64,000 nucleotides of DNA from Gammaproteobacteria bacterium. GTDB taxonomy: Bacteria; Pseudomonadota; Gammaproteobacteria; Ga0077536. The notes under the pieces are model-generated. The model was not told the origin of the DNA. It searched no databases and saw only the letters and a list, made by a program, of their open reading frames with translations. Made by a program: the position numbers and the translations under genes. The stretch is taken from positions 1,984,001 through 2,048,000 of the forward strand of contig CAXXLL010000002.1 in NCBI GenBank assembly GCA_963662545.2, read 5' to 3'. Below are positions 37,766 through 64,000 of this stretch, in pieces (positions within the stretch are counted from its first letter, which is position 1; every line of letters starts with the position of its first letter).

Positions 37766-37772
37766 CGTCGTA

Positions 37773-42406: not shown

Positions 42407-43264
42407 TCAGTTCGCGATGCGGGCGCTGCCGTTGCTGAGTACGGTGACACCGCGTTCCAGCGATGAACTGCGGAAGAAGGTGACGTCGCCTTCTCGCCAG
42501 ATCTCCGTTCTCAGGGTATCCCCGGGTAGAAAGGGCGCCGAGAAGCGCACCTGCATCGATTGCAGGCGATCGGCTTCGTAGTCGCAGCAACTGCGCACCA
42601 AGGCGTGCATGGCGATGCCCATAGTACAGCGACCGTGCAGAATGGGACGTTCGAAGCCGGCATTGGCGGCGATGCGCGGATCGGCATGGAGCGGATTCAT
42701 GTCGCCGCACAATCGGTAGAGCAGCGCTGCTTGAGGCAGGGTCGGTAGATCGCAGACCAAGTCTGGCTCGCGCTCCGGTGGTCCGGGCATACGCGGGCGC
42801 GGTGTATTTGCCCCGCCGAAACCGCCGTCACCACGCGCCAGTGTGTTTGAGATCACGGTCGCGATCGGTGTTTTTCCATCGACACTGGTGAGTTCCTTGC
42901 GCAAATAGACGAAGCAACCTTTCTCCGCACCGCGATCGACGACTTCTTCGACTACCGTCTCACCGGCAAGAGTCCCCTCGGCAGGAATGGGGTGGTGGAT
43001 TTCCACCGTCTCCTCGGCGTGCAGTACCTGCTTCCAGTCGAAACCGTATTCCGGCTGCTTCATCCAAAAGCCCGGGTAGGCGAGCACCATCGCGAGCGTC
43101 GGCAAGGCGCGAAGATTTTCCTCGTAGACGTAACGCAACTGCTTATCGTCCACCGGGTCGGCGCCGAATCCGAGCGCCAGCGCGTAGAGGATGGTGTCCT
43201 CGGCGGTATAGCTCGCCTCCTGCCGGTTGATGATCGTACCGGCCAGTTTGCTGTGGTCTTTCAT
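42407..43264 (-). CDS. MaoC/MFE-2-type (R)-specific enoyl-CoA hydratase
   Basis: [31 protein letters not shown] hydratase-2 motif. Confidence 0.92.
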   Translation of the reverse strand: [285 protein letters not shown]

Positions 43265-43284
43265 CTTTCCACTCTCGGGCGACG

Positions 43285-46091: not shown

Positions 46092-46096
46092 AACTC

Positions 46097-46798
46097 ATGT
46101 GGGTCGTCGTTCCCGTCAAACGATTCTCCGATGCGAAATCGAGGCTCGCTTCGATCCTCTCTGAAGCCGAGCGTGAATCACTGACCCAGGCCATGTTGAA
46201 CGATGTGCTGCATGCACTCGGACAGAGCCAACAGGTATCAGGAATCGTCGTCATTTCTCACGAAACCCGTGCACGATACGCGGTGGAGCGGATCGGCGGC
46301 CTGTTCACTGAGGAGTCCGGATCGGGGCTGTCCAGCGCGATCGCGCAGGGCGGCGCCTGGCTGGCAAAACACGGGCAGCGCGACATGCTCATGATCCCAG
46401 GCGACGTGCCGCTGGTGTCGAGCCGTGAAATCGACGAGATCATCAATCTCCACCAGGGTGCGCCCGCCGTGACAATAACCCCAGATCGCGAGCACAACGG
46501 CACCAATGCACTCGCGGTCAGCCCGACTGACGCCATCCGGTTCGCTTACGGCGCCGACAGTTTTACCGCCCACAAGGCCGCGGCCGAAGCGGTGGGCATC
46601 GAACCGAGGATCGTGCAACTTCCCGGTTTCGCTCTCGACGTCGACAATCCCATGGATCTCAGGACTTTGCTGACCTATGACAGTGAAACCGAGACCCTCG
46701 CCTACCTTTCGGACAGCGGTATCGCCCGCCGCATCTTACCCCGGCATAATGGCGGGCCGGACAACAGCGATATCACCGCCGCCTCGCGCTTGATTTAG
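46097..46798 (+). CDS. cofC: 2-phospho-L-lactate/PEP guanylyltransferase
   Basis: VPVK-AKSRL, PGDVP, GTNAL, YGADSF-H, LDVDNP-DL; start 46085 or 46097. Confidence 0.95.
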   Translation: MWVVVPVKRFSDAKSRLASILSEAERESLTQAMLNDVLHALGQSQQVSGIVVISHETRARYAVERIGGLFTEESGSGLSSAIAQGGAWLAKHGQRDMLMIPGDVPLVSSREIDEIINLHQGAPAVTITPDREHNGTNALAVSPTDAIRFAYGADSFTAHKAAAEAVGIEPRIVQLPGFALDVDNPMDLRTLLTYDSETETLAYLSDSGIARRILPRHNGGPDNSDITAASRLI

Positions 46799-49258
46799 AT
46801 GACTCAATCTCAACGGATCCTCGATGCCGCATTGGCAGGCATGACGCCTGCGCCTCCGGACGCGTTGCAGCTTGCCGAATGTAAGGACATCGGCTCACTG
46901 CTTCAATGTGCCGGCAGCCTGCGAGACGCGGGCTTCGGATCGAGCGTCACCTACTCACGCAAGATATTCATACCGCTGACCCAGTTGTGCCGCGACGTCT
47001 GCCATTACTGCACGTTTGCACAAGCGCCCAAACGGCTTACCGCGCCCTACATGAAACTCGAGGAAGTCGTTGAACTCGCGGAGCAGGGGCGGGCCCACGG
47101 CTGCAAGGAAGCTCTTTTCACTCTGGGAGAAAAACCGGAGCTGCGCTACCAAACGGCGCGCGACGGCCTTGCCGCGATGGGCTACGCAAGCACGCTCGAA
47201 TACCTGCGCGACGCGGCCGCGGCGGTGTTCGAAAACTCCGGATTGCTACCGCACATGAATCCGGGGACCCTGACCGCGGACGAGTGCCGGATGTTGCGCG
47301 AAGTCTCACCCAGCATGGGCATCATGCTCGAATCCGCCAGTTCGCGCCTCTGTGAAAAAGGCATGCCGCATCACGGATCGCCCGACAAAGACCCCCGCGT
47401 TCGATTAGAAACCCTGCGCAATGCCGGACGGGCGCGCATCCCGTTCACCACCGGTATTCTGATCGGCATCGGTGAGACCCGCCGCGAACGAATCGAATCA
47501 TTACTGGCAATTCGTGCGGTTCACGAGGAGTTCGGCCACATTCAGGAAATCATTATCCAAAACTTCCGCGCCAAACCGGGCACGAAGATGAACCATGCGC
47601 CGGAACCCGACCTCGAGGAAATGCTCTGGACGCTCGCGCTCGCGCGCATCCTGTTCGGATCTGCCATGAGCATCCAGGCGCCGCCCAACCTGAGTCCCGG
47701 CTGTCTGCCGAATCTCGTCGCCGCCGGTATCAACGATTGGGGCGGCGTTTCGCCCCTGACGCCGGACCACGTCAATCCCGAAGCACCCTGGCCACACCTC
47801 GAGGAGCTGGCACGCGATACTCGTGCCGCCGGTAAAACGCTTCACGAACGCTTGACGATTTACCCGCACTACGTGCGCGAGGCGACCGATTGGGTTGACG
47901 AGCGCTTCCTGACACCGCTGCTCCAGGCGACGGACGCCGAAGGTTATCCGCGCTCCGATGAATGGTGCCCAGGTGACGACATCGCACCGCCCACCGAGAT
48001 CACAAGCGCAGTCACGGCCTCGCTAAAATCTGTTTCGCGTGACCTTCAGGCGATTCTCAATCGTGTCACCGACGGTGAACAACTTGCGGAAAGCGAGGTC
48101 GCGCGTCTGTTCGGCGCCCGCGGCGACGATTTTACCGCGGTATGCCGCGCCGCCGACGATCTGCGACTAGCGGTCAACGGTGACACCGTGAGTTTCGTCG
48201 TCAATCGCAACATCAATTACACCAATGTGTGCTATTTCAAGTGTCAGTTCTGCGCGTTTTCCAAGGGCAAGCTGAGCGAGAACCTGCGTGGTCAACCCTA
48301 CGACCTCGAAGCCGGCGAGATCCAGCGCCGCGTCCGGGAAGCCTGGGATCGGGGTGCGACCGAGGTCTGCATGCAGGGCGGTATTCACCCGCAATATACC
48401 GGCGAAACTTATCTCGACATCCTGCGGACGGTGAAGGATGCGGTGCCCGACATGCACGTGCACGCCTTCTCACCGCTCGAGGTCTGGCAGGGTGCGAAAA
48501 CCTTAGATCTGCCGCTCGCAGACTATCTCCAGCGCTTGCAGGACGCGGGGCTAGGGACCCTGCCCGGGACTGCCGGCGAAGTGCTGGACGACGAAATCCG
48601 CGCCATCATCTGCCCCGACAAGATCAACACGGCCCAATGGCTAGAGGTCATGCGCGTGGCGCACGCAACCGGCTTTCGAACGACCGCGACGATCATGTAC
48701 GGTCACGTCGACCATGCGATCAACTGGGCGCGCCACCTGCTGCGCGTACGTGACCTGCAGATCGAGACCGGCGGCTTCACCGAATTCGTGCCGCTGCCGT
48801 TCGTGCACATGGAAGCGCCTTTGTACCTCAAGGGTCGCGCGCGCAAGGGACCCACCTTCCGCGAGGCCGTATTAATGCACGCCGTCGCGCGGCTCACGCT
48901 GCATCCGCACATCACCAATATCCAGGCTTCGTGGGTGAAGATGGGCCATGAAGGCGTCGTCGCTTGCCTCAACGCCGGTGTGAACGATCTCGGCGGTACC
49001 TTGATGAACGAAAGCATCACCCGGGCGGCTGGCGCCTCTCACGGTCAAGAGACTTCTCCGGAGCGCATGATCGCGATGATCGAAGCGGCTGGACGCAAAC
49101 CCAGGCAGCGCACCACGACCTACGGCGAGGTTGCTTTTGAGCGCATCGAGGCGTCGCGCGGCGCGCTGGCGCTGGACACGATTGTCAATACGCCGGCGCG
49201 CCGTTATGAACGGCATGGCCGCCGTACACTGGTTCGCTCGCGCGCCCAAGCCGGTTGA
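46799..49258 (+). CDS. fbiC: bifunctional FO synthase (CofG-CofH fusion)
   Basis: Two radical-SAM motifs CRDVCHYC and CYFKCQFC; GINDWGGVSP, NDLGGTLMNESI. Confidence 0.97.
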   Translation: MTQSQRILDAALAGMTPAPPDALQLAECKDIGSLLQCAGSLRDAGFGSSVTYSRKIFIPLTQLCRDVCHYCTFAQAPKRLTAPYMKLEEVVELAEQGRAHGCKEALFTLGEKPELRYQTARDGLAAMGYASTLEYLRDAAAAVFENSGLLPHMNPGTLTADECRMLREVSPSMGIMLESASSRLCEKGMPHHGSPDKDPRVRLETLRNAGRARIPFTTGILIGIGETRRERIESLLAIRAVHEEFGHIQEIIIQNFRAKPGTKMNHAPEPDLEEMLWTLALARILFGSAMSIQAPPNLSPGCLPNLVAAGINDWGGVSPLTPDHVNPEAPWPHLEELARDTRAAGKTLHERLTIYPHYVREATDWVDERFLTPLLQATDAEGYPRSDEWCPGDDIAPPTEITSAVTASLKSVSRDLQAILNRVTDGEQLAESEVARLFGARGDDFTAVCRAADDLRLAVNGDTVSFVVNRNINYTNVCYFKCQFCAFSKGKLSENLRGQPYDLEAGEIQRRVREAWDRGATEVCMQGGIHPQYTGETYLDILRTVKDAVPDMHVHAFSPLEVWQGAKTLDLPLADYLQRLQDAGLGTLPGTAGEVLDDEIRAIICPDKINTAQWLEVMRVAHATGFRTTATIMYGHVDHAINWARHLLRVRDLQIETGGFTEFVPLPFVHMEAPLYLKGRARKGPTFREAVLMHAVARLTLHPHITNIQASWVKMGHEGVVACLNAGVNDLGGTLMNESITRAAGASHGQETSPERMIAMIEAAGRKPRQRTTTYGEVAFERIEASRGALALDTIVNTPARRYERHGRRTLVRSRAQAG

Positions 49259-51473: not shown

Positions 51474-52079
51474 GGCAGGGCTTTCGTTAGGTTGCAGGGA
51501 AATCGAGCGCGCTCGATGGGAAGCGCGACTCTAACGCCTCCGTACCGTTTTGTCAGCTAGCCCTCATTCACCCTTGAACTGCGGCGGTTACCAGATTGCG
51601 TATTCGATCGTGCAGAACTCGGAGAAGAGGAAAGACTCCAGGATCCTGTCTGGCCGCCCGTGATCACGCCGAAGCGCGTGCTCCGATTACCCGGGGGAAA
51701 TTCGTCAGCATGTTGGCGTCGCCGGCGGGGCTCGGCGAACCCGGCCCCCTCCGCTTCAACTATGCGACGCATTGGCTCGAGCATCGACAAGACCGATCTC
51801 GGCCGCATTGTCCAGAAGAGGCTGCTGCTTTGCAGGGCGATCGGCGGGTGCTGCTGTTGGCGCCCGATGAACGAGCCCGGTGGAAGATTCAAGCGCGGTC
51901 GCAGGCTCAGTCACGACTGAGAACGAGGATTGCCCGCATCGTCTATCGAGCCGTTTGCGGGTCAAACGAACTGTTACGCAAGCTAGTTCCAAAAACCCGG
52001 CTTGCCGTGAGTCTAAATGCCTCGCGTACGATCGCTATCCCGGATAGCGGCGACAACCCGGAATAAGCTGGTGACTGTA

Positions 52080-52196
52080 GGGGGAATTTTGGGGGGAATT
52101 CTGGGGGAAATTCTGAGGACAGTTTGCTTAATTCCCGCGCAACCCATGCTGAACGGCTCGGCTTGGCATAATTAAGTAAACTGTCCCCGCAATTTC
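52080..52196. repeat. inverted repeat preceded by GGGGAATT tandem units
   Basis: gaaattctgaggacagtttgcttaatt (52107-52133) vs aattaagtaaactgtccccgcaatttc (52170-52196). Confidence 0.75.
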
Positions 52197-52613
52197 TTAA
52201 CCAGCCTTCCGAAGAATTTCTTTGCTGCGCGAGCGTCGCGTTTCTTTCGCACAAGAAGATGAATCACATCTCCATCCTGGTCTACGGCTCTGTATAGATA
52301 TCGCTGCTGACCCTCAATCCGGACGAACACCTCATCGACGTACCAGGTATCGCCGTATCCACTGTTGCGTTTTCTGAGGCAGAATGCATATTTCGGTCCG
52401 AATTTTATGCATCAGCGACGAACCGTCTCATAAGATACTTGGATCTCTCGCTGCGCGAGCAAATCCTCGATATCACCGAAGCTTAGACTGAATCGATGAA
52501 AGAGCCAGACTGTCTATTGGATGATTTCGGGCGAGAAGCGGTGGCGGTGATATTGACTATTAGGCGCTTTCATATCGCCACTTTGCCTAATCGTCGGTTA
52601 ACGTGACTATACC
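52197..52613 (-). pseudogene. IS6-family transposase remnant with one TIR
   Basis: From ATG 52573: YHRHRFSPEIIQ*TVW...SYETVRR*CIKFG...WYVDEVFV...YRAVDQDG; two in-frame stops, truncated; IS6-like end ggtatagtcacgttaa at 52598-52613. Confidence 0.9.
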
Positions 52614-52650
52614 TTTGAGAGTGTACACATTGAACCGGAGAGACTATTAG

Positions 52651-53412
52651 ATGACCGAGCATTGATTTGCGAACCGGGTCGCCCTGATCCTTGGCGGCAC
52701 CAGCGGCATCGGGCGTGCCGCAGCCTTGCGCTTTGCAGCCGAAGGCGCGGCGGTTGTCATCGGTGGCCGCAACGTTGACAACGGCGAGGATATATCCGAA
52801 GAAATTTGCGGGGCCAGCGGCGATGCGCTTTTCGCCCGGACCGACGTCGGCTCGCTCGAACAGGTCCAGGCCATCGTCGCCACCACGCTTGAACGCTTCG
52901 GCCGGCTCGATTGTGCGTTCAACAATGCCGGTTGGGAAGGCACGGGCAGCGCCACAGCCGACACCAGTGAAAGCGACTGGCAACGCATGATCGACATTAA
53001 ATTGAACGGCGTGTGGCGCGGCGTCCGCGAACAAATACCCGCTATGCTGAAAGGCAGCGGTGGCAGCATCGTCAACATGGCCGGCAACTGGGGCCTGGTC
53101 GGTTTTCCGAATTACGCCTCCTATTGTGCCGCCGCACACGGGGTCCTCGGCCTGACCAAGGCGGCAGCGCTCGAGTACGCGGGACAGGGGATCAGAATCA
53201 ACGCGGTGTACCCCGGCGCAGTCGATGCTCCGCTGCTGGATCGCATGGTCGGCGGCGACGCGTCGATCAAGGCCGCATTCGCCGCGGAGCTACCGGCCGG
53301 CCGGCTCGCGACCGAGGAAGATGTCGCTGAGGCCGTGTTATGGCTGGCGTCGGATGCGGCAGCTTACGTCAACGGCACGAGTATTGTTCTCGACGGTGGG
53401 GGCAAGCCGTGA
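52651..53412 (+). pseudogene. SDR oxidoreductase with a nonsense codon at codon 5
   Basis: ATG ACC GAG CAT TGA TTT GCG AAC CGG GTC... is in frame with GGTSGIG and with the ORF starting at 52726 (NNAG, YCAAAH); RBS GGAG upstream. Confidence 0.82.
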
Positions 53413-53417
53413 GGCGA

Positions 53418-53738
53418 TCAGTCGCCGTTCGGCACCTCGATCCACACGGCATCGCCGACGATCGTGACCGCATACGTATTGACCGGCACGATGCACGGTC
53501 GACCGACGGCAATGCCCGTGCGTATGTCAAAGCTGCCACCGTGAAAAGGACAGATAACAGCGTCGTTTTCCACCTCGCCCATCGACAGCAATGCACCACC
53601 GTGCGTACAGATGTCATCGATCGCGTGGAATCCATCTTCAAGATGATAGATCCCAATTGGATCCCGCCCGTCGAAGTTGATACGTTTACCCGAACCTGGC
53701 GCCACATCGGTCGTTTTGCAGACTTCAATCCTGGCCAT
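53418..53738 (-). CDS. Rieske [2Fe-2S] ferredoxin
   Basis: DDICTH...ICPFHGGSFDIRTG. Confidence 0.95.
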   Translation of the reverse strand: MARIEVCKTTDVAPGSGKRINFDGRDPIGIYHLEDGFHAIDDICTHGGALLSMGEVENDAVICPFHGGSFDIRTGIAVGRPCIVPVNTYAVTIVGDAVWIEVPNGD

Positions 53739-53808
53739 GGCGCTGGCATTCTACCGCAGTGCCAGGCGCCCGAATGACGCCATCACCAGCATCCATGGAA
53801 AACGCAAA

Positions 53809-55095
53809 ATGAATGACGCTAATTCCATCGCGGCCGATCTGATCCGCCGCACCGCAGCCTACGTACCCGACGTCGAGGTGCCCGACAGCGCGGCACCGAG
53901 CGCGCAAAAGCCATGGCAAACCTGGCTCGAAGCGGAGTTCGGTTTCCGCAACCACTGGTATCCCGTCGAAGCCAGCCGCAACATCCGTGACGGTGAACAC
54001 AAGCTCGTCAAGCTGCTGGGCGAAGACATCCTGTATCTCCGACGTAAAGGCCGTCTTTTCGCGATAGAAGATCGCTGCTGCCACCGCGGCACGAGGTTTT
54101 CAGTCCGCCCGATTCATTACACCGACGATACCATCACCTGTTGGCACCACACCTTCACCTTTAATCTCGACGACGGTCACATCCGCTGCATACTGAATGA
54201 TCCTGAATCGACGCTCTGCGGTGCGCGTGGAATAAAGAGCTATCCGGTGCGCGAGGAAAAGGGGATTATTTTTACGTTCGTCGGCGACATCGAGCCGCCG
54301 CCGCTCGAATACGATGTGCCGCCGGGATTCATGGACGATAACGTCGCCATAGCGGTGGCTGACCCTTATGTCGTCAATGCGAGCTGGCGCCTGGGATGCG
54401 AAGGCGGCTACGACCCCGGACATCATTTCATTCACAACTGGTCGCGCTACTCCATCAATGCCCGCATGCCGATGTCGTTCGGTTGGGTATCGGAAACGGA
54501 ATCGTTGTTGAAAGCGACTGTGTATCAAAAGAGCGACGCGGGTCCGCGCGGGTTCACACGCTTTGCCGGCGAAACCACCATCTCCATGTCCGCGACCATT
54601 CCGGGCCGCAACGGCGATGCCGACAAGGAAGTCGTCCTGCCGATACTCAAGGGACAGACGCCACCTGAAGTCGAGGCGCTAATGCGCAGTACCCAGGAAA
54701 CCAAGGTCGGGCTGTGGATGCCCTGTGGACTCAAAGTCGATCCCTGGCCGTTTCCCGGCGTGATCCACAACGAGTATTACGTGCCGCGCGACGCGACCTC
54801 GCACCACTATTTCCAATGCGGCTGGAAAGTGTGCGAAACGGACGAAGAGCGTGAGGAATGGACCGACGGCGAATTGGGCCGGGTGCGCTGGAAAGTGCCG
54901 GTGGTCGAAGATTTCACGGTACAGGATGCCGAGGCGCGCGAAGGCATCGCCAAATTCTATGCCGAAGAAGACGGCTGGGAGCAGGAGCAGCTCGCGCGGG
55001 CCGACATCGAATTGCTGATGTGGCGCGTGTTTGCCGGGGACACCTGCCGCGGGGTACAGACTATCGAACACACCAAAGGCTTGTTCAAGCGATGA
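53809..55095 (+). CDS. Rieske non-heme iron oxygenase, CarAa/OxoO (alpha3) family
   Basis: GFRNHWYP, KLLGE, DRCCHRG...TCWHH, WRL-EGGYDPGHHFIH, QDAEARE. Confidence 0.9.
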   Translation: MNDANSIAADLIRRTAAYVPDVEVPDSAAPSAQKPWQTWLEAEFGFRNHWYPVEASRNIRDGEHKLVKLLGEDILYLRRKGRLFAIEDRCCHRGTRFSVRPIHYTDDTITCWHHTFTFNLDDGHIRCILNDPESTLCGARGIKSYPVREEKGIIFTFVGDIEPPPLEYDVPPGFMDDNVAIAVADPYVVNASWRLGCEGGYDPGHHFIHNWSRYSINARMPMSFGWVSETESLLKATVYQKSDAGPRGFTRFAGETTISMSATIPGRNGDADKEVVLPILKGQTPPEVEALMRSTQETKVGLWMPCGLKVDPWPFPGVIHNEYYVPRDATSHHYFQCGWKVCETDEEREEWTDGELGRVRWKVPVVEDFTVQDAEAREGIAKFYAEEDGWEQEQLARADIELLMWRVFAGDTCRGVQTIEHTKGLFKR

Positions 55096-55099
55096 TCAT

Positions 55100-55708
55100 A
55101 TGACGTCGATCCTGCATATCGATTGCAGTGCGCGAACGAGCGGATCGGTGACGCGCGCGCTCTCCGGGCGAGTCGTAGAAAACCTGCGCACGGCCGACGC
55201 GAGCGCGACGGTGACCCGACGGGATCTGACGACAATAGATCTGCCCCATGTCGACGGCGCCGTCGCGGAAGCCTTGTTCATCGACGATGAAACGCTCGAT
55301 GAACAGCAAAAGCACGCCCTCACCTTGTCCGATCTGCTGACTGGCGAACTCCTCGCCGCGGAAACGGTGGTGGCGGGTATCCCGATGTACAACTTCAGCG
55401 TGCCGTCGAGCTTCAAGGCATGGATCGATCTTGTCGTACGCCCGCGTAAGACGTTTCGCAAGGTTGCGAACGGTCAACTCGAAGGCCTTTGCCGCGGCAA
55501 ACGACTCTTTGCCTGCACGGCCGGACACGGTCAGTTCAACGGCACACCCCTCGATCACCTGCGTCCCTATCTGGAAAAAGTGTTCGGCTTCATCGGCTTC
55601 GAGGAAGTCGTTTTCTTTGACGCCGAACGCATGGCATGGGGACCGCAAGAAAAACAACGATCGATCGCCGCGGCCAGCGTGGCCATCGATGCCCATTTCG
55701 CGACGTGA
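55100..55708 (+). CDS. FMN-dependent NADH azoreductase/quinone reductase (AzoR/AcpD-like)
   Basis: ILHIDCSAR-SVTR, PMYNFSVPSSFKAWID, FGFIGF. Confidence 0.92.
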   Translation: MTSILHIDCSARTSGSVTRALSGRVVENLRTADASATVTRRDLTTIDLPHVDGAVAEALFIDDETLDEQQKHALTLSDLLTGELLAAETVVAGIPMYNFSVPSSFKAWIDLVVRPRKTFRKVANGQLEGLCRGKRLFACTAGHGQFNGTPLDHLRPYLEKVFGFIGFEEVVFFDAERMAWGPQEKQRSIAAASVAIDAHFAT

Positions 55709-55719
55709 AGGAGAGTACC

Positions 55720-57063
55720 TTGAGCTTGAATCCAACCCCGCTGCCCTTTTCAACTGAGCAGCAAGGCTTCTACGAGGCGGCTTGCGCACAGATCGATGCT
55801 GCTCGCCTGAAACAACTCACCTTCGATCTGACCGCTATCCACAGCCCAACCGGCGCAGAGGAGGCCGCAAGCCGTTACCTCGTCGGATATATGAATGACG
55901 CGGGCCTGCCCGCCCAGTATCAGGCGGTCAGCGCGTCTAGCGGCAACTGCATCGGGCGCATCGTCGGTGACGGCACCGGCCCGACCGTTATGTTGTACGC
56001 GCCGATCGATACCCATCTCGACGCTGATCCCGATATCGATCTGCCGTGGGCGGGGCCCAGCTTGCGCGCCGATATGTTGCCGCATGCCGAAATCCATGGT
56101 GATACGGTGCTGGGCTTGGGCGCGTCCAATCCGAAATCGATGATCGCTACCTTGACGGAAGCCGCACGGTGCGTACAAGCGGCAGGGGTTCCGCTCAAGG
56201 GCGATATCCTAGTCGCTTCCTGCGGTGGTGGTATGCCTTGGATTGCGACAGAGCGCGCGCATACCGGGATCAGCAGCGGCGTCATGCACATGCTGTCGCA
56301 CGGGATCGCCGCCGACTTCGGCGTGATATTCAAACCTTGGGACGAGGTCTACTACGAACATCCCGGCATGGTCTGGTTCAAGATAACGACCTGGGGTTCG
56401 ATGGGGTATGCCGGGATCCCGCGCGGCATTCCAGAATTCCGCAGCTCCATCGTGCCCGGCGCCCGCGTCATACTCGACCTTGAGCAATGGCTTTCGGAAT
56501 ACCCGAGCGGCCACATGAGCGCGCAGATCAAACCCGAAGGCTGGATTGCCGCAGTGCGCGCCGGCTGGCCGGATAAGCCGGCCTTCCCATCGGCCGCGTG
56601 TGAGATCTATGTCGATCTGAGAACCAATCCAGACCAAAGCATGGCCGAAATCGAAGCGGAATTCGGCGCGGTCATGCGCGAGATCGTCGCCCGCCACGAT
56701 GACGTCGAGGCCACCTGGGAAACTTTCGTCACCTGTCGCGGTTCGCGCACCGAGCCCGACAATTGGATCATACAGAGTGCGTTGCGTGGCTGGGAATCGG
56801 TGCATGAACGCAGTTACCCGGGAGCCGAGATGCTGAGCGGCCAGACCGACGCGGCGACCATCTGTCAGATGGGATTACCGTTGGTGCGCATCGGCTATCC
56901 CTGGGTCGGCGACAAAGACATGCCAAAGGAATTCAGCGATGGTCTCGGTGGGATGGGCGTCGCCTTCATTCCGGATCTCATCGATCCCATGCGTCATTTG
57001 ATTTACATCCTGATCGATTCGTGTACGCGCACGCGCGAAGAAGTCGGGCTCAAACACGGCTGA
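55720..57063 (+). CDS. M20/ArgE-fold protein lacking canonical metal ligands
   Basis: SPTGAEE, GTGPTVMLYAPIDTH, GLGASNPK, VDLRT, GQTDA; TTG start after AAGGAG. Confidence 0.8.
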   Translation: MSLNPTPLPFSTEQQGFYEAACAQIDAARLKQLTFDLTAIHSPTGAEEAASRYLVGYMNDAGLPAQYQAVSASSGNCIGRIVGDGTGPTVMLYAPIDTHLDADPDIDLPWAGPSLRADMLPHAEIHGDTVLGLGASNPKSMIATLTEAARCVQAAGVPLKGDILVASCGGGMPWIATERAHTGISSGVMHMLSHGIAADFGVIFKPWDEVYYEHPGMVWFKITTWGSMGYAGIPRGIPEFRSSIVPGARVILDLEQWLSEYPSGHMSAQIKPEGWIAAVRAGWPDKPAFPSAACEIYVDLRTNPDQSMAEIEAEFGAVMREIVARHDDVEATWETFVTCRGSRTEPDNWIIQSALRGWESVHERSYPGAEMLSGQTDAATICQMGLPLVRIGYPWVGDKDMPKEFSDGLGGMGVAFIPDLIDPMRHLIYILIDSCTRTREEVGLKHG

Positions 57064-57110
57064 CGTTGGCCGCATGAACGGCGCGCATCATTCGTAACGA
57101 GGAACTCGGC

Positions 57111-58013
57111 ATGGCTGAAGTCAAAGCACTCGGATACATCGGTTGTGATATTTCCGAACCGGCGGCCTGGCAGCGCCTACTCGAGGACGTCTTCGCGCTG
57201 GAGCTGCGTGACGAGGTTGACGACGGTGTTCAACGATACCGTATGGACGCGCAGCATCATCGGCTCGCCCTGTACGAATCCGATCGGGACGCGCTCCGCT
57301 ACATCGGCTGGGCGGTCGATACGCGCCGGGATCTCGACGATCTGGGCGCCTCTCTGACCACCAAGGGCATCGAAGTGGAACGTGGGGATGCGGAGCTCTG
57401 CGCCGAGCGCTCGGTCATGGATTTGATCGTAGTTGAAGGACCCGACGGGGTGCGAATCGAAGTGTTTTTCGGTCCCGTCCAGGAGGCCAAGCCGTTCACG
57501 CCCAAGCGTGGCATGGCAGGATACAACACGGGCCTACTCGGTATGGGGCACGTGGTCTTGTCGACGGGCGATCGGGAAGCCACAGCGCAGTGGTACCAGG
57601 ACATGCTGGGTTTTCGCCTGAGTGATCACATCTTCTGGGACGGTATCGAAGCGACTTTCCTGCATTGTAATCCCCGGCATCATTCGCTCGCCTTCACCAA
57701 CCTCTTCGGTGATTTACAGGGCGGCGAACTCGGCCATTTCATGCTCGAATCGACGTCGCTGGACGACGTCGGGCGCGCCTATGACGTGGTCGGCAGCCAG
57801 GGGTTCCCGGTGGCCATGACCCTGGGCCGACACACCAACGACCAGACGACCTCGTTTTACGTCTACAGCCCCTCGGGCTGGTGGATCGAATACGGCTACG
57901 GCGGGCGCACCATCGACGACGCGGTATGGGAACCCGGGTTTTATAATTCGCCCAAGATCTGGGGCCACGAAATGATGCCGCCGCCGAGTAAGGCGGGAAA
58001 CGCGGGAAGCTGA
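57111..58013 (+). CDS. type I (VOC) extradiol ring-cleavage dioxygenase, BphC/HsaC-like
   Basis: LGYIG, GMGHVVL, FLHCNPRHHS, HFML, LGRHTND-SFY-SPSGWWIEYG. Confidence 0.95.
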   Translation: MAEVKALGYIGCDISEPAAWQRLLEDVFALELRDEVDDGVQRYRMDAQHHRLALYESDRDALRYIGWAVDTRRDLDDLGASLTTKGIEVERGDAELCAERSVMDLIVVEGPDGVRIEVFFGPVQEAKPFTPKRGMAGYNTGLLGMGHVVLSTGDREATAQWYQDMLGFRLSDHIFWDGIEATFLHCNPRHHSLAFTNLFGDLQGGELGHFMLESTSLDDVGRAYDVVGSQGFPVAMTLGRHTNDQTTSFYVYSPSGWWIEYGYGGRTIDDAVWEPGFYNSPKIWGHEMMPPPSKAGNAGS

Positions 58014-58018
58014 AGACG

Positions 58019-58888
58019 ATGAGTCAATCGATCTGGAACTATTTGCAGGGCGTCGAGTTCAAGCAGACCTACTACGACGCCAACGGCGTTAGCACCCGCG
58101 CGATCGAAGCGGGCCAGGGCCCGGTATTGATCCTCCTGCACGGGACCGGCGGGCATGCAGAAGCCTACCTCAAGAACATCGAGGCGCACGCACGGCACTT
58201 TCACGTCTACGCCATCGACATGGTCGGCCACGGCTACAGCGATGCCCCCGACATTTCGTATGACATGCAATGTTACGTCGATTTCATGCGCGACTTCCTG
58301 GATGCCATCGGTGCCGACAAAGCCTTCATATCGGGCGAGTCTCTGGGCGCGACCGTGGCATCGTGGTTTGCTCTGGCCCATCCGGAGCGCATCGACAAAA
58401 TCGTCATGAACACGGGCATGATGCTACCGCCCGACGATCAAGGCGCCAAAGATCTTCAAGTACTACTCGAGCGTACCCGCGCCGCGACCGGAACACCTGA
58501 TCGCGAAGCCATCCGCCACCGGATCCGCTGGCTCATGCACCGCGAGGAAGACATCACCGACGAGCTGGTGGAAGTGCGTTTTCAGATTTACCAACAGGAC
58601 GGCCGTGCTACCGTAATGCGCAAGATTGCCGAACAGAGTATCGGCGCCCTGCTCGATCCGACCGAGCAGAAAAAGTGGTTCCACCCGGATCTTCTACGCC
58701 AGCTTGCGTGCCCGACACTCGTGCTGTGGACCCGCTATAACCCGGGGCAATTCGTACCGCTCGCGGAAGAAGGCGCAAGTCTGATCCCGGATAGCGAACT
58801 GGTCGTGCTCGAGAACAGCGCCCACTGGCCGCAATGGGAAGAACCCGAGGCGTTCAATACGGCTCACCTCGACTTTCTTCTGCGCTGA
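58019..58888 (+). CDS. meta-cleavage product hydrolase (MhpC/BphD-like)
   Basis: LLHGTGGHAE, DMVGHG, GESLG, AHWPQWE. Confidence 0.9.
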   Translation: MSQSIWNYLQGVEFKQTYYDANGVSTRAIEAGQGPVLILLHGTGGHAEAYLKNIEAHARHFHVYAIDMVGHGYSDAPDISYDMQCYVDFMRDFLDAIGADKAFISGESLGATVASWFALAHPERIDKIVMNTGMMLPPDDQGAKDLQVLLERTRAATGTPDREAIRHRIRWLMHREEDITDELVEVRFQIYQQDGRATVMRKIAEQSIGALLDPTEQKKWFHPDLLRQLACPTLVLWTRYNPGQFVPLAEEGASLIPDSELVVLENSAHWPQWEEPEAFNTAHLDFLLR

Positions 58889-58959
58889 GAAGGACCCTGC
58901 GGCCTTCGGGACGATAAGCAGGAGAAAATGGTTCGGGCGCGGGCGTTCTCTGCGTGAGA

Positions 58960-59975: not shown

Positions 59976-60863
59976 CTATGTGAAAATGGCACCGGCCAGG
60001 TCTTCTATCTCCAAGAGCATTTCTTTCTCGTCCATGGCGAAGGGGAAAATGACCGCACCGTCGGCACCTGCCTTGGCCATCTCCGCCAATTCCGATCGAG
60101 TCCGGCATGCGCCGGGCGTACCGAAGATCGTGATCTTGAGCTGCTTCGGATCGCGGTTAAAGACATTCGCGAATTTCGTGATCTCGGCCCGACCATCGGC
60201 GATTTCCTGCGGATCGGCGGTGAAGGGCAGCCAGCCCTCACCCCATTGCGCAACCCGTCGGAAGACCCGCGGATTCGCGATACTGCCAAGCAGAACCGGC
60301 GGGTGCGGATCCTGCGCCGGTCTCGGCTTGCAGATGACCGGTGGAAAATCATAATACTTGCCGTGATGTTCGACATATTCCCCGGTCCACAATGTCTTCA
60401 TTACCTGAATCGCTTCCTTGACCTGCGTCCAGCGGTGTTCGAAATCACCACCCATGACCGTGCATTCGGGTTCGTTCCAACCGGCACCGATACCATACTG
60501 GAAGCGTCCGCCCGAATAATGGTCTAGCGATGCGATCTCGATCGCCGCGTTGATGGGGTTTCGTTCGGGCACGAGCGCGACGCCCGTGCCGAGCGCGATG
60601 GTCGAGGTGACGGATGAAGCGCGCGCCAACGCGATCAGCGGATCGGGCATCTTGAACAGATACTCCGGCGTCGGCTCTCCCGGCTCCTTGGCCGGATAAA
60701 CATCGTCGGAACCCTTCGGGATCACAGCGTGCTCGGGCACCCAGTACGATGCGAACCCGAGTTCCTCGGCGCGTTTCGCAATGACGGCTGGGTCGCCGCC
60801 TTGACGGTCACACAGCGCTTGAGCGATACCGACGCCCATCCCATTCACGTTTTTAGTTGCCAT
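59976..60863 (-). CDS. LLM-class probable F420-dependent oxidoreductase (Rv2161c-like)
   Basis: AEELGF-WVPEH, PDPLIAL, LGTGV, GIGAGWN-E, GEGWLP. Confidence 0.88.
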   Translation of the reverse strand: MATKNVNGMGVGIAQALCDRQGGDPAVIAKRAEELGFASYWVPEHAVIPKGSDDVYPAKEPGEPTPEYLFKMPDPLIALARASSVTSTIALGTGVALVPERNPINAAIEIASLDHYSGGRFQYGIGAGWNEPECTVMGGDFEHRWTQVKEAIQVMKTLWTGEYVEHHGKYYDFPPVICKPRPAQDPHPPVLLGSIANPRVFRRVAQWGEGWLPFTADPQEIADGRAEITKFANVFNRDPKQLKITIFGTPGACRTRSELAEMAKAGADGAVIFPFAMDEKEMLLEIEDLAGAIFT

Positions 60864-61832: not shown

Positions 61833-62930
61833 ATGAAACTCGGCTACTTCATGATGCCCCTGCATCATATCGACCGCGACTACCATGAGACGCTTAACGA
61901 GGACATGGAGGCCATCATCTATGCCGACGAACTGGGCTACACCGAGGCCTGGGTGGGAGAGCATTACTCGAGTGCCGTGGAGCAGATCACCTCGCCCTTG
62001 ATGTTTCACGCCAATCTCATCAGCCGCACGAAGCAGATCAAACTCGCAACGGGCGTGATCTGCCTGCCGCAGTATCATCCGGCAGTGACGGCAGGGCAGG
62101 CGGCGATGTTCGATCACCTGAGTGACGGTCGCTTCATCATGGGGGTGGGGCCCGGCGGTCTATTGTCGGACTTCGAGCTCTTCGGCGTCATGGATGAGGA
62201 CCGCATGGAAATGATGGAGGAAGCGCTCGATCAGATCCTGGAACTGTGGTCGACCGAGCCGCCCTACAAATTGCACGGCAAGCATTGGACCATCGAGATG
62301 AAGGACTGGACCCACCACGACATCAAACTCGGCTACGTTGCCAAACCGCTGCAGCAACCGCACCCGCCCATCGCGATTTCCGCCATGAGCCCGGCTTCGG
62401 GTTCGCTCAAGTTCGCCGGTCGCCGCGGGTATATCCCCGTGACGGCTAATTTTATCGCTACGTGGTCCGCCAAGACCCACTGGCCCGCCTATTGCGAAGG
62501 GGCAAAGGAAGGCGGTCAAACACCCGATGCCGAAGCCTGGCACGTGGCGCGAAGCATCTTCGTCGCCGATACCGATGAGGAAGCGGCGGCTTTCGTCGCC
62601 GCCGGGGACAGCTCTTACACGTATTACTACGAGTACATTTTCACAATCTTTGATCGCGCGGATTTCAAGGGTCCTTTCGTCGCCAATCAGGACGACGATC
62701 CCGCCGAGTTGACTGCGAATAAAGTACGCGATGCCTGTGTGATCTACGGCAGCCCGGAATCGGTCGCAAGAAAACTGCTGGCCTTGCGCGAAGAGATCGG
62801 CCATTTCGGTACCTTGCTCTACGCCGCGCACGATTGGCAGGATAAAGCCGCAATGAAAAAATCGATGCGCTTGATGGCCGAAGAAGTCATCCCCCGCGTC
62901 AATCAGACGCTCGGTGCCAAAGCGGCCTGA
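61833..62930 (+). CDS. LLM-class flavin-dependent monooxygenase (LimB/diketocamphane monooxygenase-like)
   Basis: MKLGYFMMPLH, EAWVGEH, GPGGLLSD, KPLQQPHPP. Confidence 0.9.
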   Translation: MKLGYFMMPLHHIDRDYHETLNEDMEAIIYADELGYTEAWVGEHYSSAVEQITSPLMFHANLISRTKQIKLATGVICLPQYHPAVTAGQAAMFDHLSDGRFIMGVGPGGLLSDFELFGVMDEDRMEMMEEALDQILELWSTEPPYKLHGKHWTIEMKDWTHHDIKLGYVAKPLQQPHPPIAISAMSPASGSLKFAGRRGYIPVTANFIATWSAKTHWPAYCEGAKEGGQTPDAEAWHVARSIFVADTDEEAAAFVAAGDSSYTYYYEYIFTIFDRADFKGPFVANQDDDPAELTANKVRDACVIYGSPESVARKLLALREEIGHFGTLLYAAHDWQDKAAMKKSMRLMAEEVIPRVNQTLGAKAA

Positions 62931-63023: not shown

Positions 63024-64000
63024 ATGAGCGATAAGCAATTGAAGTTCGGCCTCTGGTACGACTTCAGGAATCCGCCTCAGTGGCACCGCGACAATACCGA
63101 GCTGTATCACGCTTGTTTCGACCAAATCGTACGCGCCGAGCAAGCCGGCTTCGATGACATCTGGTTATCCGAGCATCATTTCCTCGACGACTGCTATTCA
63201 CCCTCGATGCTCGCCATCGGCTGCGCCATCGCGGCCCTCACGAAGACCATTCGCATTGGCACAAGTGTGCTCCTGTTACCCCTGCACGACCCGGTGCACG
63301 TCGCCGAAGACGCGGCGACGCTCGACGTGATATCGGGCGGCCGCCTCGAACTCGGCCTCGGCGTCGGCTACAAGGTCGAAGAGCTCCGCGCCTGGGGGGT
63401 CGACCCCAAGTCACGCGGACAGCGCATGGAAGAGGGGATCGAGATCATTCAACGGCTGTTTGCCGGTGAACGCTTTAGTTTTCACGGGCAATATCACGAC
63501 TTCGACGACATTCAGCTACGGCCGATGCCGGTGCAGAAAAAACCCAGGCTCTGGATCGCCGGGTTCAGCAAGGTCGCAGTCCGCCGCGCGGCGCGGGTCG
63601 GGGCCGGTTATATCGCGGTGGGGCCGATAGGACCGTTTACGAAAGTCTACCGCGACGAACTGACGAAACAGGGTCGCGATCCGGACGATTACGAAGTTGC
63701 GGCAGGGTATGCCTGGCTGCACGTCGCCCGGGATCCGGAAAAGCGGTGGTCAGAAGCGGTCGATCATCTCGCCTATCAGCAAAACTGTTACGGCGAGTGG
63801 TTCTCGGCCGCGGGTATGGATTTCATCAAACCGGTAACGGCGACGCGTGAATCCATCGAAAGCAACGACTGCTACATCGTAAGCCCCGATAAAGCAGTCG
63901 AGATGATCAAGGAGTACGTCGAAGCCACCGGCTCGAGCCGTTTCTACACCTGGGCGGTACCACCCGGCATGCATCCCAGCTGGACCGATGAACACATCGA
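63024..64000 (+). CDS. LLM-class oxidoreductase (partial, runs off the window)
   Basis: [17 protein letters not shown]...WLSEHHF...[31 protein letters not shown]; RBS AGGAG; no stop before the window end. Confidence 0.9.
   Translation, partial: [325 protein letters not shown]

Follow-up and report, generated by a model that had tools for sequence, protein, structure and literature searches.

The closest described systems to the locus considered herein are built around oxygenases of the CarAa/OxoO family, the two characterised members of which act next to a ring nitrogen. In the car operon (CarAa, CarAc, CarAd, CarBaBb and CarC) of Pseudomonas resinovorans pCAR1 and Novosphingobium KA1 pCAR3, the logic is that of an oxygenase, extradiol cleavage by the two-subunit CarBaBb and C–C hydrolysis. 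OxoO and OxoR (2-oxo-1,2-dihydroquinoline 8-monooxygenase) belong to the quinoline '8-hydroxycoumarin' route of Pseudomonas putida 86. To our knowledge, and as literature searches show, the enzymes following OxoO have not been assigned, so that any comparison with this route is one with an incompletely known pathway. Other genes of the locus recall BphC and BphD of the biphenyl pathway, in which the oxygenase is the α3β3 BphA; the AzoR enzymes, which are two-electron hydride donors; and NaaA (5-nitroanthranilate aminohydrolase, PDB 5k8m–5k8p), an enzyme with a labile metal. An excerpt of one study (PMC10306065) describes NaaA as taking off an aromatic amino group by hydrolysis, with an anthranilate derivative as its own substrate.

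Organisation and mobility of the module

The window, i.e. the whole 64,000 nt stretch of DNA analysed, harbours a seven-gene catabolic module in the genome of an uncultured marine bacterium. Its upstream edge is marked by a fragment of an IS6/IS240-family DDE transposase (52175–52411, minus strand; Pfam DDE_Tnp_IS240, 6e-19), which covers only positions 2–56 of the 139 in the profile and has an in-frame stop ahead of it. The genes encode, in order, an SDR, a ferredoxin, an oxygenase, an AzoR-like flavoprotein, an M20-fold protein, an extradiol dioxygenase and a hydrolase. Ferredoxin and oxygenase are divergent and separated, by their coordinates, by exactly 70 bp (53739–53808), a region that, from its position, presumably holds both promoters. 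An earlier note on this DNA had described the last six genes, their order and the 70 bp gap, all of which are found exactly where it placed them (53418–58888). The SDR gene, the IS fragment and the discrete nature of the block formed no part of that description.

All seven genes lie within a transferable block (52633–58948), which aligns by blastn as a single stretch of 6316 bp (6.3 kb) to positions 6825–13140 of L001, a locus from another MAG, with 92.7 % identity; the flanks show no blastn alignment to L001 on either side. Distribution of the module is patchy: besides this genome, six of 24 from the same family carry it, as does one of a sample of 399 further members of the class. On the basis of a block with foreign flanks, an IS fragment and this patchy spread, the module is horizontally mobile.

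The oxygenase and its electron supply

The oxygenase gene (53809–55095, plus strand; 428 aa) specifies a CarAa/OxoO-family Rieske non-haem-iron enzyme of the homotrimer type, matching Pfam Aromatic_hydrox (PF11723, 1.5e-64) and Rieske (4.8e-14), a fold family shared with both CarAa and OxoO. Amongst solved structures, CarAa (1ww9, 1.8e-81) ranks ahead of OxoO (1z01, 7.4e-52), and identity is 35–38 % with CarAa and 30 % with an orthologue of OxoO. In a phylogenetic tree the protein falls within a separate 106-row clade, sister to CarAa, and is an orthologue of neither enzyme, in keeping with its previous description as divergent from both; this clade is large and uncharacterised. The Rieske ligands, iron ligands and bridging Asp are all kept, being retained in 104–105 of the 105 aligned clade members. 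The pocket, in contrast, is more polar than that of CarAa, with (in CarAa numbering) K188N in all 105 members, N330T in 94, I184H in 89, Q282H in 86 and F283N in 55. Motif differences quoted before (EGGYDPGH in the window versus ENGFDPSH in CarAa, and FTVQD versus FNNDD) are real in this alignment, and since the active-site substitutions are conserved throughout the clade, the different substrate that had been proposed fits.

The Rieske-type [2Fe–2S] ferredoxin (53418–53738, minus strand; 106 aa; Pfam Rieske, 1.6e-16) shares 39 % identity with pCAR1 CarAc, scores 94.5 bits against the NCBIfam HcaC-type model (below its cut-off of 113) and adjoins the oxygenase in eight of 14 related genome loci. 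It is the predicted electron carrier to the oxygenase, in place of the Fer2-FAD-NAD reductase OxoR. There is no ferredoxin reductase within the module, just as the earlier note had it, and no CarAd; the only Reductase_C-type match of the genome lies at C2:1913975, ~123 kb before the cluster, and this and the OxoR-like matches are all outside the window. Six ferredoxin-bearing clusters (L002, L010, L011, L043, L044 and L094) likewise possess neither AzoR nor a reductase, which argues that this oxygenase system normally borrows its reductase.

The NaaA-like M20-fold protein

The M20-fold gene (55720–57063, plus strand) starts with TTG at 55720 behind AAGGAG, an alternative GTG start at 55705 overlapping the AzoR stop. 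Its product matches no Pfam family, and TIGR01910 only at 3.2e-12; the best sequence match is NaaA (5k8p, 2.7e-22), at ~21 % identity. Foldseek searches with its AlphaFold2 model (pLDDT 89.4) return NaaA as the top matches (TM 0.76–0.87, E ~3e-33), with M20 enzymes of the DapE/ArgE type trailing clearly at ~1e-25. The canonical M20 metal ligands are absent: the His of HxD (HLDT in NaaA) is Pro, the bridging Asp is Asn, Glu-Glu is Gly-Gly (Gly-Glu in NaaA against Gly-Gly-Gly here) and the next Glu is Lys, whilst Ala stands at the position of NaaA Arg289. The Asn is shared with NaaA; the other changes from NaaA, and a context of oxygenase clusters rather than naa genes, set the two apart. This uncharacterised subfamily nonetheless keeps ~70 invariant alignment columns, many of them polar, including E52, D102, D123, E152, D204, K210, E218, H219, D304, R306 and D382. 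With the canonical ligands gone, the protein may work differently from NaaA, or be no hydrolase.

Ring cleavage, C–C hydrolysis and the lower pathway

The ring-cleavage enzyme (57111–58013, plus strand) is a two-domain type I extradiol dioxygenase; its domain matches (Glyoxalase, 4.1e-27; BphC_D1) confirm that it is of the VOC type rather than the LigAB type, and it thus differs from CarBaBb. Like BphC (1han, 5.9e-56), it has a conserved His/His/Glu triad, with H147, H209, E260, H241 and Y250 invariant in 39 cluster homologues. Amongst curated families, biphenyl-2,3-diol dioxygenase fits it best, although the score against TIGR03213 (281.5 bits) is under the equivalog cut-off of 366. The last gene (58019–58888, plus strand; Abhydrolase_1, 1.9e-27) encodes a meta-cleavage-product C–C hydrolase of the DxnB2/CarC type, the best solved relatives being DxnB2 (4lxg, 1.4e-26) and CarC (1j1i, 1.1e-23). 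As in BphD, this is an α/β protein with a Ser nucleophile (motif GESLG) and a conserved Arg (38 homologues all keep S108, H269 and R187), but again under the equivalog cut-off (86 versus 462). Unlike in the biphenyl pathway, the partner of these enzymes is an α3 oxygenase. Genes for a hydratase, an acylating acetaldehyde dehydrogenase and an aldolase adjoin the cluster in L010, L011, L043, L044 and L094, and at least the latter two do so in L042, L046 and Cupriavidus; in the window's own genome, hydratase, dehydrogenase and aldolase are found at C3:2.861–2.865 Mb. These neighbours speak for a catechol whose ring is free.

A broken SDR gene and an AzoR-like flavoprotein

The SDR gene (52650–53412, plus strand; adh_short_C2, 6.2e-56) carries a premature TGA at codon 5 (52662–52664), where L001 has CGA, and contigs from four runs, each of a different study, list no difference at this position. 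The remaining ORF starts with TTG at 52726; its Pfam match begins at profile position 15, and the start of the nucleotide-binding fold is missing. Orthologues lie within the operon in L010, L011, L043–L045 and L094, and the SDR belongs to the conserved cluster. The AzoR-like FMN-dependent NADH:quinone/azo reductase (55100–55708, plus strand) is a full-length Flavodoxin_2 protein (6.5e-40) that matches E. coli AzoR (1v4b, 2.6e-30), with AzoR and quinone-reductase structures at 1.7e-30 to 7e-30; it remains below all NCBIfam cut-offs (54.7 versus 188) and, in distinction to AzoR, is encoded inside a ring-cleavage operon, where sister clusters carry the SDR. AzoR occupies this position in the oxygenase cluster only in the window, L001, L003, L024, L031 and L033. 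An SDR orthologue occurs in two of these six AzoR-bearing loci, that of the window being broken, and in ten of the 11 AzoR-less loci that hold oxygenase, M20-fold protein and dioxygenase, the loci being few and partly related, with two of the AzoR loci on cut contigs. AzoR most likely replaces the role of the SDR. Together with the M20-fold protein, these two are additions relative to the car operon.

Conservation of the cluster family

Amongst the partners of CarAa/OxoO-family oxygenases, the M20-fold protein is the most constant: of 14 related genome loci (oxygenase at least 53 % identical), 11 hold its gene. Conversely, a PF11723-type oxygenase occurs in 40 of 80 metagenome loci fetched via the M20-fold protein; where at least 4 kb is available on both sides (20 loci), oxygenase, hydrolase and extradiol dioxygenase are found in 16, 15 and 13, respectively. 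The family spans marine, soil and freshwater metagenomes and several phyla. NaaA-like M20-fold protein, extradiol dioxygenase, hydrolase and SDR also surround true OxoO/OxoR orthologues, e.g. on a Cupriavidus necator plasmid, with identities to the window's proteins of 46–50, 44, 29–34 and 41–48 %, respectively (OxoO orthologues against 1z01: L093, 807.8 bits; C. necator C39, 860.2 bits). Gene order in Cupriavidus is oxoO, oxoR-like, M20-fold (50 % identical to that of the window) and amidase. Given this same downstream set, the module is a variant of an OxoO-type cluster rather than the unrelated new pathway suggested previously, and is not peculiar to this genome.

An amidase-signature gene is found with the M20-fold gene in 34 of the 80 metagenome loci as well as in Cupriavidus, and is absent from the window's module. 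Two-subunit molybdenum hydroxylases (Fer2_2 small and MoCoBD large subunits) and TonB receptors adjoin L044, L094 and L061, which are clusters of two types; by tblastn, such hydroxylases occur in 12 of 80 metagenome and five of 19 genome loci. None adjoins the module itself, the nearest in its genome being ~70 kb off. Their presence beside related clusters supports the N-heteroaromatic substrate that had been envisaged.

A proposed route and its alternatives

Our favoured reading, held at roughly even confidence, is that the module degrades an aromatic compound whose benzene ring bears a nitrogen substituent, with quinolone-type benzo-fused N-heterocycles or lactams, or ortho-substituted arylamines arising from these, as the likeliest candidates. 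In the order of steps that we infer, a three-component Rieske system (the α3 oxygenase sister to CarAa, the ferredoxin and a reductase whose gene lies elsewhere in the genome) would oxygenate the benzene ring, either on the carbon that carries the nitrogen or on its neighbour. The NaaA-like protein would hydrolyse the remaining C–N link, freeing the nitrogen and leaving a 3-substituted catechol, to be opened by the BphC-type dioxygenase; the CarC/DxnB2-type hydrolase would then release 2-hydroxypenta-2,4-dienoate and a side-chain acid, which would enter the lower meta pathway encoded on the other replicon. The AzoR-like flavoprotein would do the job of the SDR in most sister clusters, either by catalysing the route's single reductive step or by protecting air-sensitive aminophenol, quinone-imine and catechol intermediates from oxidation. 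As the module has no amidase, a lactam substrate would call for an enzyme encoded outside it (the genome has 21 amidase-family matches) or a different first reaction.

Both the oxygenase, nearer to CarAa than to OxoO, and the hydrolase fit a carbazole-like route too, which we nevertheless consider unlikely. There, a compound resembling a diaryl amine (carbazole, an aminobiphenyl precursor, acridone or a carboline) would undergo angular dioxygenation, the C–N bond would break spontaneously, dioxygenase and CarC-like hydrolase would yield 2-hydroxypenta-2,4-dienoate and an anthranilate-like acid, and the NaaA-like enzyme would deaminate the latter to a salicylate-like acid. Whilst CarAa is the closest solved relative of the oxygenase and sister to its clade, the limited identity and the conserved polar swaps in the pocket speak against this route. 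Ferredoxin and hydrolase likewise resemble CarAc and DxnB2/CarC, but ring cleavage in carbazole operons falls to CarBaBb, and the conserved SDR or AzoR would be left without a role. The anthranilate-type substrate of NaaA, as given in the excerpt above, is in line with such a route; M20-fold orthologues, however, also reside in OxoO/OxoR operons, where anthranilate is not formed. Finally, no amidase would be required, as in the window's gene set, and the car genes of pCAR3 are likewise followed by a TonB receptor, yet the molybdenum hydroxylases of sister clusters point to a ring nitrogen of the pyridine type, and carbazole has none.

It is improbable that the route is biphenyl-like, with a nitrogen-free or incidentally nitrogen-bearing substrate converted to a cis-dihydrodiol, rearomatised by the SDR and passed to dioxygenase and hydrolase, and with the M20-fold protein acting on a side chain, e.g. 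an N-acyl amino acid conjugate. The order oxygenase–SDR–dioxygenase–hydrolase is indeed conserved in L010, L011, L043–L045 and L094, a second, canonical M20 peptidase adjoins clusters of this type, and the curated family of the dioxygenase agrees. Against this, the SDR is broken in the contigs of all four studies whilst the rest of the module is intact, and an FMN quinone reductase in its place could hardly substitute for a dihydrodiol dehydrogenase, a name that is absent from the 60 best matches of the SDR amongst solved structures; the characterised oxygenases of the family, moreover, act beside a ring nitrogen.

That the M20-fold protein is a non-enzyme, retained as a structural or regulatory partner of the oxygenase after loss of its metal site, is very doubtful. 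Every canonical ligand position is replaced in this most constant of neighbours, and in a metagenome ORF (P0190, 735 aa) the C-terminus of an oxygenase runs directly into an M20-fold protein, but the many invariant polar residues persist, the nearest relative, NaaA, is an enzyme with a labile metal, and the gene is often several kb away from that of the oxygenase and adjacent to an amidase gene instead. Least tenable is the earlier idea of AzoR supplying electrons, as the missing reductase from NADH to the Rieske ferredoxin in a new kind of three-component Rieske oxygenase: although its gene starts 4 bp past the oxygenase stop, packed tightly against the next, in a module without a reductase, six ferredoxin-bearing clusters do without either, the conventional Reductase_C-type enzyme could serve the oxygenases behind the genome's 21 Rieske-domain matches, AzoR enzymes donate hydride as two electrons, and AzoR alternates with the SDR, not with a reductase.

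From the co-occurrence of M20-fold protein and oxygenase, and from the OxoO/OxoR operons, the module is thus no one-off but one form of a widespread, partly characterised cluster type. With the favoured reading of a nitrogen-substituted aromatic as substrate, it offers candidate enzymes for the unassigned steps of quinoline-type degradation.

Organization of the module

The six genes described in the earlier note are all present, each exactly at the position claimed for it. The Rieske ferredoxin gene (53418-53738, minus strand), encoding 106 aa with a Pfam Rieske match of 1.6e-16, is separated by a divergent gap of 70 bp from the oxygenase gene (53809-55095), whose 428 aa product combines a Rieske domain (4.8e-14) with a PF11723 'homotrimeric ring hydroxylase' domain (1.5e-64). 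Starting 4 bases past the oxygenase stop is a gene for an AzoR-like flavoprotein (55100-55708; Flavodoxin_2 6.5e-40, Escherichia coli AzoR 2.6e-30), followed by that for the M20-fold protein, which most likely begins at a TTG (55720) with an AAGGAG box ahead of it, the alternative being a GTG at 55705 that overlaps the AzoR stop. The remaining two genes encode an extradiol dioxygenase with two VOC domains (57111-58013) and an alpha/beta hydrolase (58019-58888).

Two elements are added to this inventory. An SDR gene (52650-53412) adjoins the ferredoxin gene directly upstream; its codon 5 is TGA in the window and CGA in L001, a locus from a metagenome-assembled genome (MAG; 97 % related). Over the full 6.3 kb, contigs of four runs, from as many studies, differ from the window at 0-1 positions, never at the SDR stop, and this agreement indicates that the stop is not an assembly slip. 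The SDR was also considered as a cis-dihydrodiol dehydrogenase, and this was rejected, with none of its 60 best solved relatives bearing that name. Approximately 240 bp further upstream lies a truncated IS6/IS240 transposase fragment (52175-52411; PF13610 6e-19, profile positions 2-56 of 139), which is recognized when the correct stop-to-stop frame is read. ORFs near this remnant, at 51943-52254 and 51557-51892, have no Pfam match.

Alignment of the window with L001 reveals a single common block of 6316 bp (52633-58948) at 92.7 % identity, with the flanks unshared on both sides. As nothing is shared outside this block, the seven genes, judged from sequence comparison, behave as a single transferable module. 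Amongst relatives the M20-fold gene has a patchy distribution: 6 of 24 other genomes within the family carry it, as does 1 of 399 others sampled from the class.

A separate clade of CarAa/OxoO-type oxygenases

The PF11723 match of the oxygenase spans profile positions 1-241 of 241, and no beta (small) subunit gene occurs between 53418 and 58888. This combination of a Rieske and an Aromatic_hydrox domain without a beta subunit gene places the protein in the homotrimeric CarAa/OxoO family, for which, to our knowledge, the substrates of only two members are known. Residues C90, H92, C111, H114, H205, H209, D373 and D202 align with C69, H71, C90, H93, H183, H187, D333 and D180 of CarAa, which we take to be the Cys-His-Cys-His cluster ligands, the 2-His-1-Asp iron site and the bridging Asp; each is conserved in 104-105 of the 105 members of the clade.

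Amongst solved relatives, CarAa is closest (1.8e-81), with OxoO more distant (7.4e-52). Identity is 35.1 % to pCAR1 CarAa, about 37.7 % to pCAR3 CarAa and 30 % to an OxoO orthologue from Cupriavidus, which itself scores 860 bits against the OxoO structure 1z01. The phylogeny with CarAa and OxoO proposed in the earlier note was generated using FastTree on 120 rows (the query, two CarAa proteins, the OxoO orthologue and, from 120 database homologues listed, the 116 with a length of 370 aa or more). In this rough tree with one outgroup, the deeper branching of which is not to be relied on, the query falls within a 106-row clade (support 100, stem 0.69) apart from the CarAa proteins of CA10 and KA1 and 11 CarAa-like proteins. 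By both tree and identity the oxygenase is therefore not CarAa proper; nor are the other partners of the car operon found, the dioxygenase being VOC-type rather than CarBaBb and a CarAd reductase being absent from the module. It is likewise not OxoO, given 30 % identity and a window that has no OxoR-like (Fer2-FAD-NAD) gene. The ferredoxin is nearest to the HcaC/AndAb type, under their curated cut-offs, and is 39 % identical to pCAR1 CarAc. Names carried by clade members are automatic only, with JGI annotation calling these genes 'carbazole dioxygenase', an annotation against which caution is warranted. A literature search returned no paper characterizing any member of this oxygenase clade.

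Differences from CarAa are also apparent in the substrate pocket, and the divergent motifs quoted in the earlier note are visible in the alignment. Across the clade, replacements at or near the CarAa pocket comprise I184H, K188N, L202F/Y, F204W/Y, I262V, S263G, Q282H and N330T, with the subclade of the query additionally displaying N177G and F283N. Positions 275 and 282 are those engineered in deposited CarAa variants; the remaining positions are assigned to the pocket on the basis of the CarAa structure. With two histidines and one asparagine gained, these replacements argue for a substrate of more polarity than carbazole. The earlier suggestion of an uncharacterized CarAa/OxoO-type system acting on a different, probably N-heteroaromatic, substrate is upheld.

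An M20-fold protein related to NaaA

The M20-fold protein (55720-57063) has no Pfam family match, and a protein atlas search with it retrieves only generic M20 clusters. Its best solved sequence relative is 5-nitroanthranilate aminohydrolase, NaaA (5k8p; 2.7e-22), with the next match at an E-value of 0.17. An AlphaFold2 model built with 50 homologues (pLDDT 89.4, pTM 0.91) returns NaaA chains for all of the best 11 Foldseek rows (E-value ~3e-33, TM 0.76-0.87), with DapE/ArgE-type enzymes ranking behind at ~1e-25. The fold is thus that of M20 enzymes, and NaaA is the closest relative by both sequence and structure.

The active site is seemingly neither that of an M20 metallopeptidase (PF01546) nor that of NaaA. 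No HMM match to the former is found, and at the aligned dimetal motif positions, presumed here to be the canonical M20 ones, the family consensus reads P, N, GG and K: a Pro replaces the His of the HxD motif found in M20 enzymes and NaaA (HLDT), an Asn occupies the position of the bridging Asp, as in NaaA, a Gly-Gly stands at the Glu-Glu, and a Lys at the next Glu ligand. With regard to NaaA itself, the query and its family have exchanged the HLDT His for Pro, the CGE Glu for Gly and Arg289 for Ala; part of the assignment of these residues to metal or substrate binding is our assumption, with Arg289 being deduced from the title of an R289A entry. Approximately 70 columns, many acidic or His, are invariant across the 50 homologues, and from this pattern of conservation we infer that the protein is still an enzyme, its site having been rebuilt, and not an inactive relic; E52, D102, E152, E218 and H219 are candidate residues for such a site. 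NaaA swaps an aromatic amino group for a hydroxyl by hydrolysis (PMC10306065).

The family is of modest size, with 106 clusters (50 % identity) scoring 1e-30 or better. In one metagenome protein (P0190, 735 aa), a single frame joins the C-terminal two thirds of a PF11723 oxygenase to an M20-fold protein that shares 61 % identity with that of the window; the two may be genuinely fused, or a stop separating neighbouring genes may have been lost. A gammaproteobacterial genome from the class sample (G383) harbours three M20-fold copies, which are 60-70 % identical, and another (G019:C1:5541931-5543262) a 48 % copy with an in-frame TGA.

Ring-cleavage enzymes

The dioxygenase aligns over its full length to TIGR03213, under the equivalog cut-off, and to BphC (1han) at 5.9e-56. 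Its residues H147, H209 and E260, to which we assign the 2-His-1-Glu triad positions, are invariant in 39 homologues, and the protein has the features of a type I (VOC) BphC-like enzyme. The hydrolase possesses a GESLG motif with S108, and its H269 and R187 are invariant in 38 homologues; its best relatives (4lxg, 1.4e-26; 1j1i, 1.1e-23) and these residues are those of the DxnB2/CarC class, with the catalytic Asp not located in the sequence.

Recurring gene neighbourhoods

A synteny survey, as suggested in the earlier note, reveals several recurring arrangements. The M20-fold gene is the most faithful companion of the oxygenase: 14 genome loci have an oxygenase of 53 % identity or more, and 11 of these carry it; the three without it are L009, L012 (a 5-kb contig) and L013. 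The pairing is not universal, as none of five Frankia loci (L015-L019), in which the oxygenase is 42-45 % identical, has the gene. Conversely, 40 of 80 metagenome loci fetched by alignment of the M20-fold protein contain a PF11723-type oxygenase. Amongst the 20 loci flanked on either side by 4 kb or more, tblastn (E-value 1e-10 or better, coverage at least 45 %) detects an oxygenase in 16, a hydrolase in 15, a dioxygenase in 13, an amidase-signature protein in 11, an SDR in 10, a TonB receptor in eight and a molybdenum hydroxylase in six. The clade is represented in several phyla, in bacteria of marine, soil and freshwater origin, and is larger than the CarAa or OxoO group.

The window-type order is SDR, ferredoxin (minus strand), oxygenase, AzoR, M20-fold protein, dioxygenase and hydrolase. 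A second type (L010, L011, L043-L045, L094) is found in a Phycisphaerae MAG, a Steroidobacteraceae MAG and metagenomes, with L010 and L043 apparently from one organism; here the minus strand carries aldolase, acetaldehyde dehydrogenase, hydratase, DUF1097, canonical M20 and ferredoxin genes, and the plus strand oxygenase, SDR, M20-fold, dioxygenase, hydrolase, TonB receptor and two-subunit molybdenum hydroxylase genes. A third (L025, L026, L076) ends with an oxygenase paralogue (50 %). The commonest, at ~30 loci, contains hydrolase, oxygenase, Fer2-FAD-NAD reductase, dioxygenase, amidase, M20-fold, SDR and MarR genes. Since the usual first step on N-heteroaromatics is hydroxylation beside the ring nitrogen, the molybdenum hydroxylases beside two of the cluster types fit such a step.

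Individual loci hold further genes. In one related locus, L033, a thioredoxin-reductase-like Pyr_redox_2 protein (14582-15529, 315 aa) is encoded between dioxygenase and hydrolase, in a cluster that also possesses AzoR, an amidase and two oxygenase paralogues. A DUF1989 protein adjoins two different cluster types (L094 15835-16449; L033 10202-10828).

Relationship to OxoO and the quinoline route

In the commonest cluster type the oxygenase is a true OxoO orthologue (807.8 bits against 1z01 for L093). A cultured representative, Cupriavidus necator C39, has a plasmid operon of oxoO, an oxoR-like reductase gene, an M20-fold gene (50 % to that of the window) and an amidase gene; close by are the lower-pathway genes and those for MarR, a meta-cleavage hydrolase and an SDR. 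OxoO/OxoR forms 8-hydroxy-2-quinolone in the '8-hydroxycoumarin' route of quinoline degradation, and we know of no genes assigned to the nitrogen-removing enzymes that act after it to give 2,3-dihydroxyphenylpropionate; a literature search likewise found no paper assigning genes downstream of OxoO. As predicted from sequence, the content of these clusters fits this gap well: the amidase would open the lactam, the NaaA-like enzyme would convert the arylamine to a hydroxyl, the SDR could perform a reduction step, the dioxygenase and hydrolase would handle a 3-substituted catechol, and hydratase, aldolase and dehydrogenase would handle 2-hydroxypenta-2,4-dienoate. For the kynurenate (7,8-dihydroxykynurenate) pathway, a chemically attractive but speculative candidate for the target, a literature search found no paper naming its genes, and the passages on it in one review (PMC11354673) cite just the 1961 tracer work.

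The window possesses the same five families (oxygenase, NaaA-like M20-fold protein, dioxygenase, hydrolase and SDR) as ~20 OxoO-type loci; the M20-fold proteins are 46-50 % identical, the dioxygenases 44 %, the hydrolases 29-34 % and the SDRs 41-48 %. It differs in that its oxygenase is a sister of CarAa fed by a Rieske ferredoxin, that it is without an amidase, and that AzoR occupies the operon slot of the SDR. The shared downstream set, together with these differences, suggests that the module encodes an OxoO-type route in variant form, directed at another N-bearing aromatic. The notion of a stand-alone new pathway is consequently wrong, as the downstream set is common to OxoO-type clusters.

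Within such a variant route, the lack of an amidase might be accommodated in several ways: attack in the manner of CarAa would open the ring C-N bond without one, the substrate may already be an ortho-substituted arylamine, or an amidase could be borrowed from amongst the 21 amidase-family hits of the genome.

The AzoR-like protein has a flavodoxin-like fold and a full-length match to AzoR structures, with NCBIfam curated cut-offs not reached. It occurs in six loci (the window, L001, L003, L024, L031 and L033), only two of which have an SDR orthologue, that of the window being broken, whilst amongst 11 loci that combine oxygenase, M20-fold protein and dioxygenase but lack AzoR, 10 have an SDR. 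With two of the contigs cut (L024 and L031) and several of the loci closely related, these counts are a hint and not a statistic; they suggest that AzoR has taken over the role of the SDR. An FMN quinone reductase could plausibly substitute for an SDR in reducing a quinone, quinone imine or activated double bond, but could hardly do so in the oxidation of a dihydrodiol, such that AzoR in the place of the SDR counts against a biphenyl-like reading. The proposal that AzoR supplies electrons is not borne out: six sister clusters carrying the same ferredoxin are also without any reductase, and the genome has a conventional one, a single Reductase_C-type ferredoxin reductase (C2:1913975) versus 21 Rieske-domain hits. 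The ferredoxin reductase would thus be supplied in trans.

Genome and distribution of the host bacterium

The genome (5.58 Mb, three contigs, 96.85 % complete) carries lower meta-cleavage genes on the other large contig, and its relatives are uncultured Gammaproteobacteria MAGs. Runs containing the stretch include sponge, marine sediment and seawater metagenomes, along with four coded host-labelled data sets, with no RNA run amongst those listed. In contigs of the runs labelled with these four coded organisms, from four studies, the sole difference across 52600-58900 is 52816 A>G. Either the bacterium is widespread and very clonal, living in association with several hosts, or these data sets have a contaminant in common.

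Elsewhere in the window, a full coenzyme F420 biosynthesis set (44392-49258) comprises F420-0:gamma-glutamyl ligase, CofD, a CofC-like protein and an 819-aa radical-SAM CofG/CofH fusion, and there are at least three luciferase-like monooxygenase genes (59976-60863, minus strand; 61833-62930; 63024-63998). A beta-oxidation-like run on the minus strand (36965-44196) encodes an enoyl-CoA hydratase and two acyl-CoA dehydrogenase-like proteins, along with an APH-family kinase, a family III CoA-transferase, a MaoC dehydratase and an SDR. The genome as a whole has an unusual abundance of family III CoA-transferases and of amidases, the latter with 21 family hits. The other replicon harbours a second aromatic locus (G000:C3:2018839-2024349) with a Rieske oxygenase and a Rieske ferredoxin 43 % identical to that of the module, an amidase-family frame containing an in-frame TAG, and an arylmalonate-decarboxylase-like gene with 50 % identity to one beside OxoO-type clusters.

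Implications

The most interesting outcome is the recurrent pairing of these oxygenases with a NaaA-like predicted hydrolase of altered active site. A tentative, and on present indications rather doubtful, extension is that NaaA-like M20-fold proteins beside CarAa/OxoO-type oxygenases form a widely distributed family of enzymes whose active site is rebuilt and non-canonical, hydrolytically removing nitrogen from oxygenated N-aromatics (by converting an arylamine to a phenol or by hydrolysing the tautomeric imine), and that in the window this chemistry is turned, by a CarAa-sister oxygenase and an AzoR-type quinone reductase, to another substrate, probably a natural marine one. Were this so, cultured strains would be available for testing, namely Cupriavidus necator C39, Pandoraea sp. 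PE-S2R-1, Marinobacterium sp. BA1 and Paraburkholderia sp. J63; in the Pandoraea strain the oxygenase homologue (52 %) and the M20-fold homologue (54 %) come from contigs of equal length. The step from 8-hydroxy-2-quinolone to 8-hydroxycoumarin in quinoline degradation would be filled, and there would be candidate genes for N-heterocycle degradation steps known since the 1990s as chemistry only. The family would, moreover, be a second and far larger example of hydrolytic aromatic nitrogen removal, making the hydrolytic deamination of aromatic rings, so far represented only by NaaA, a general strategy.
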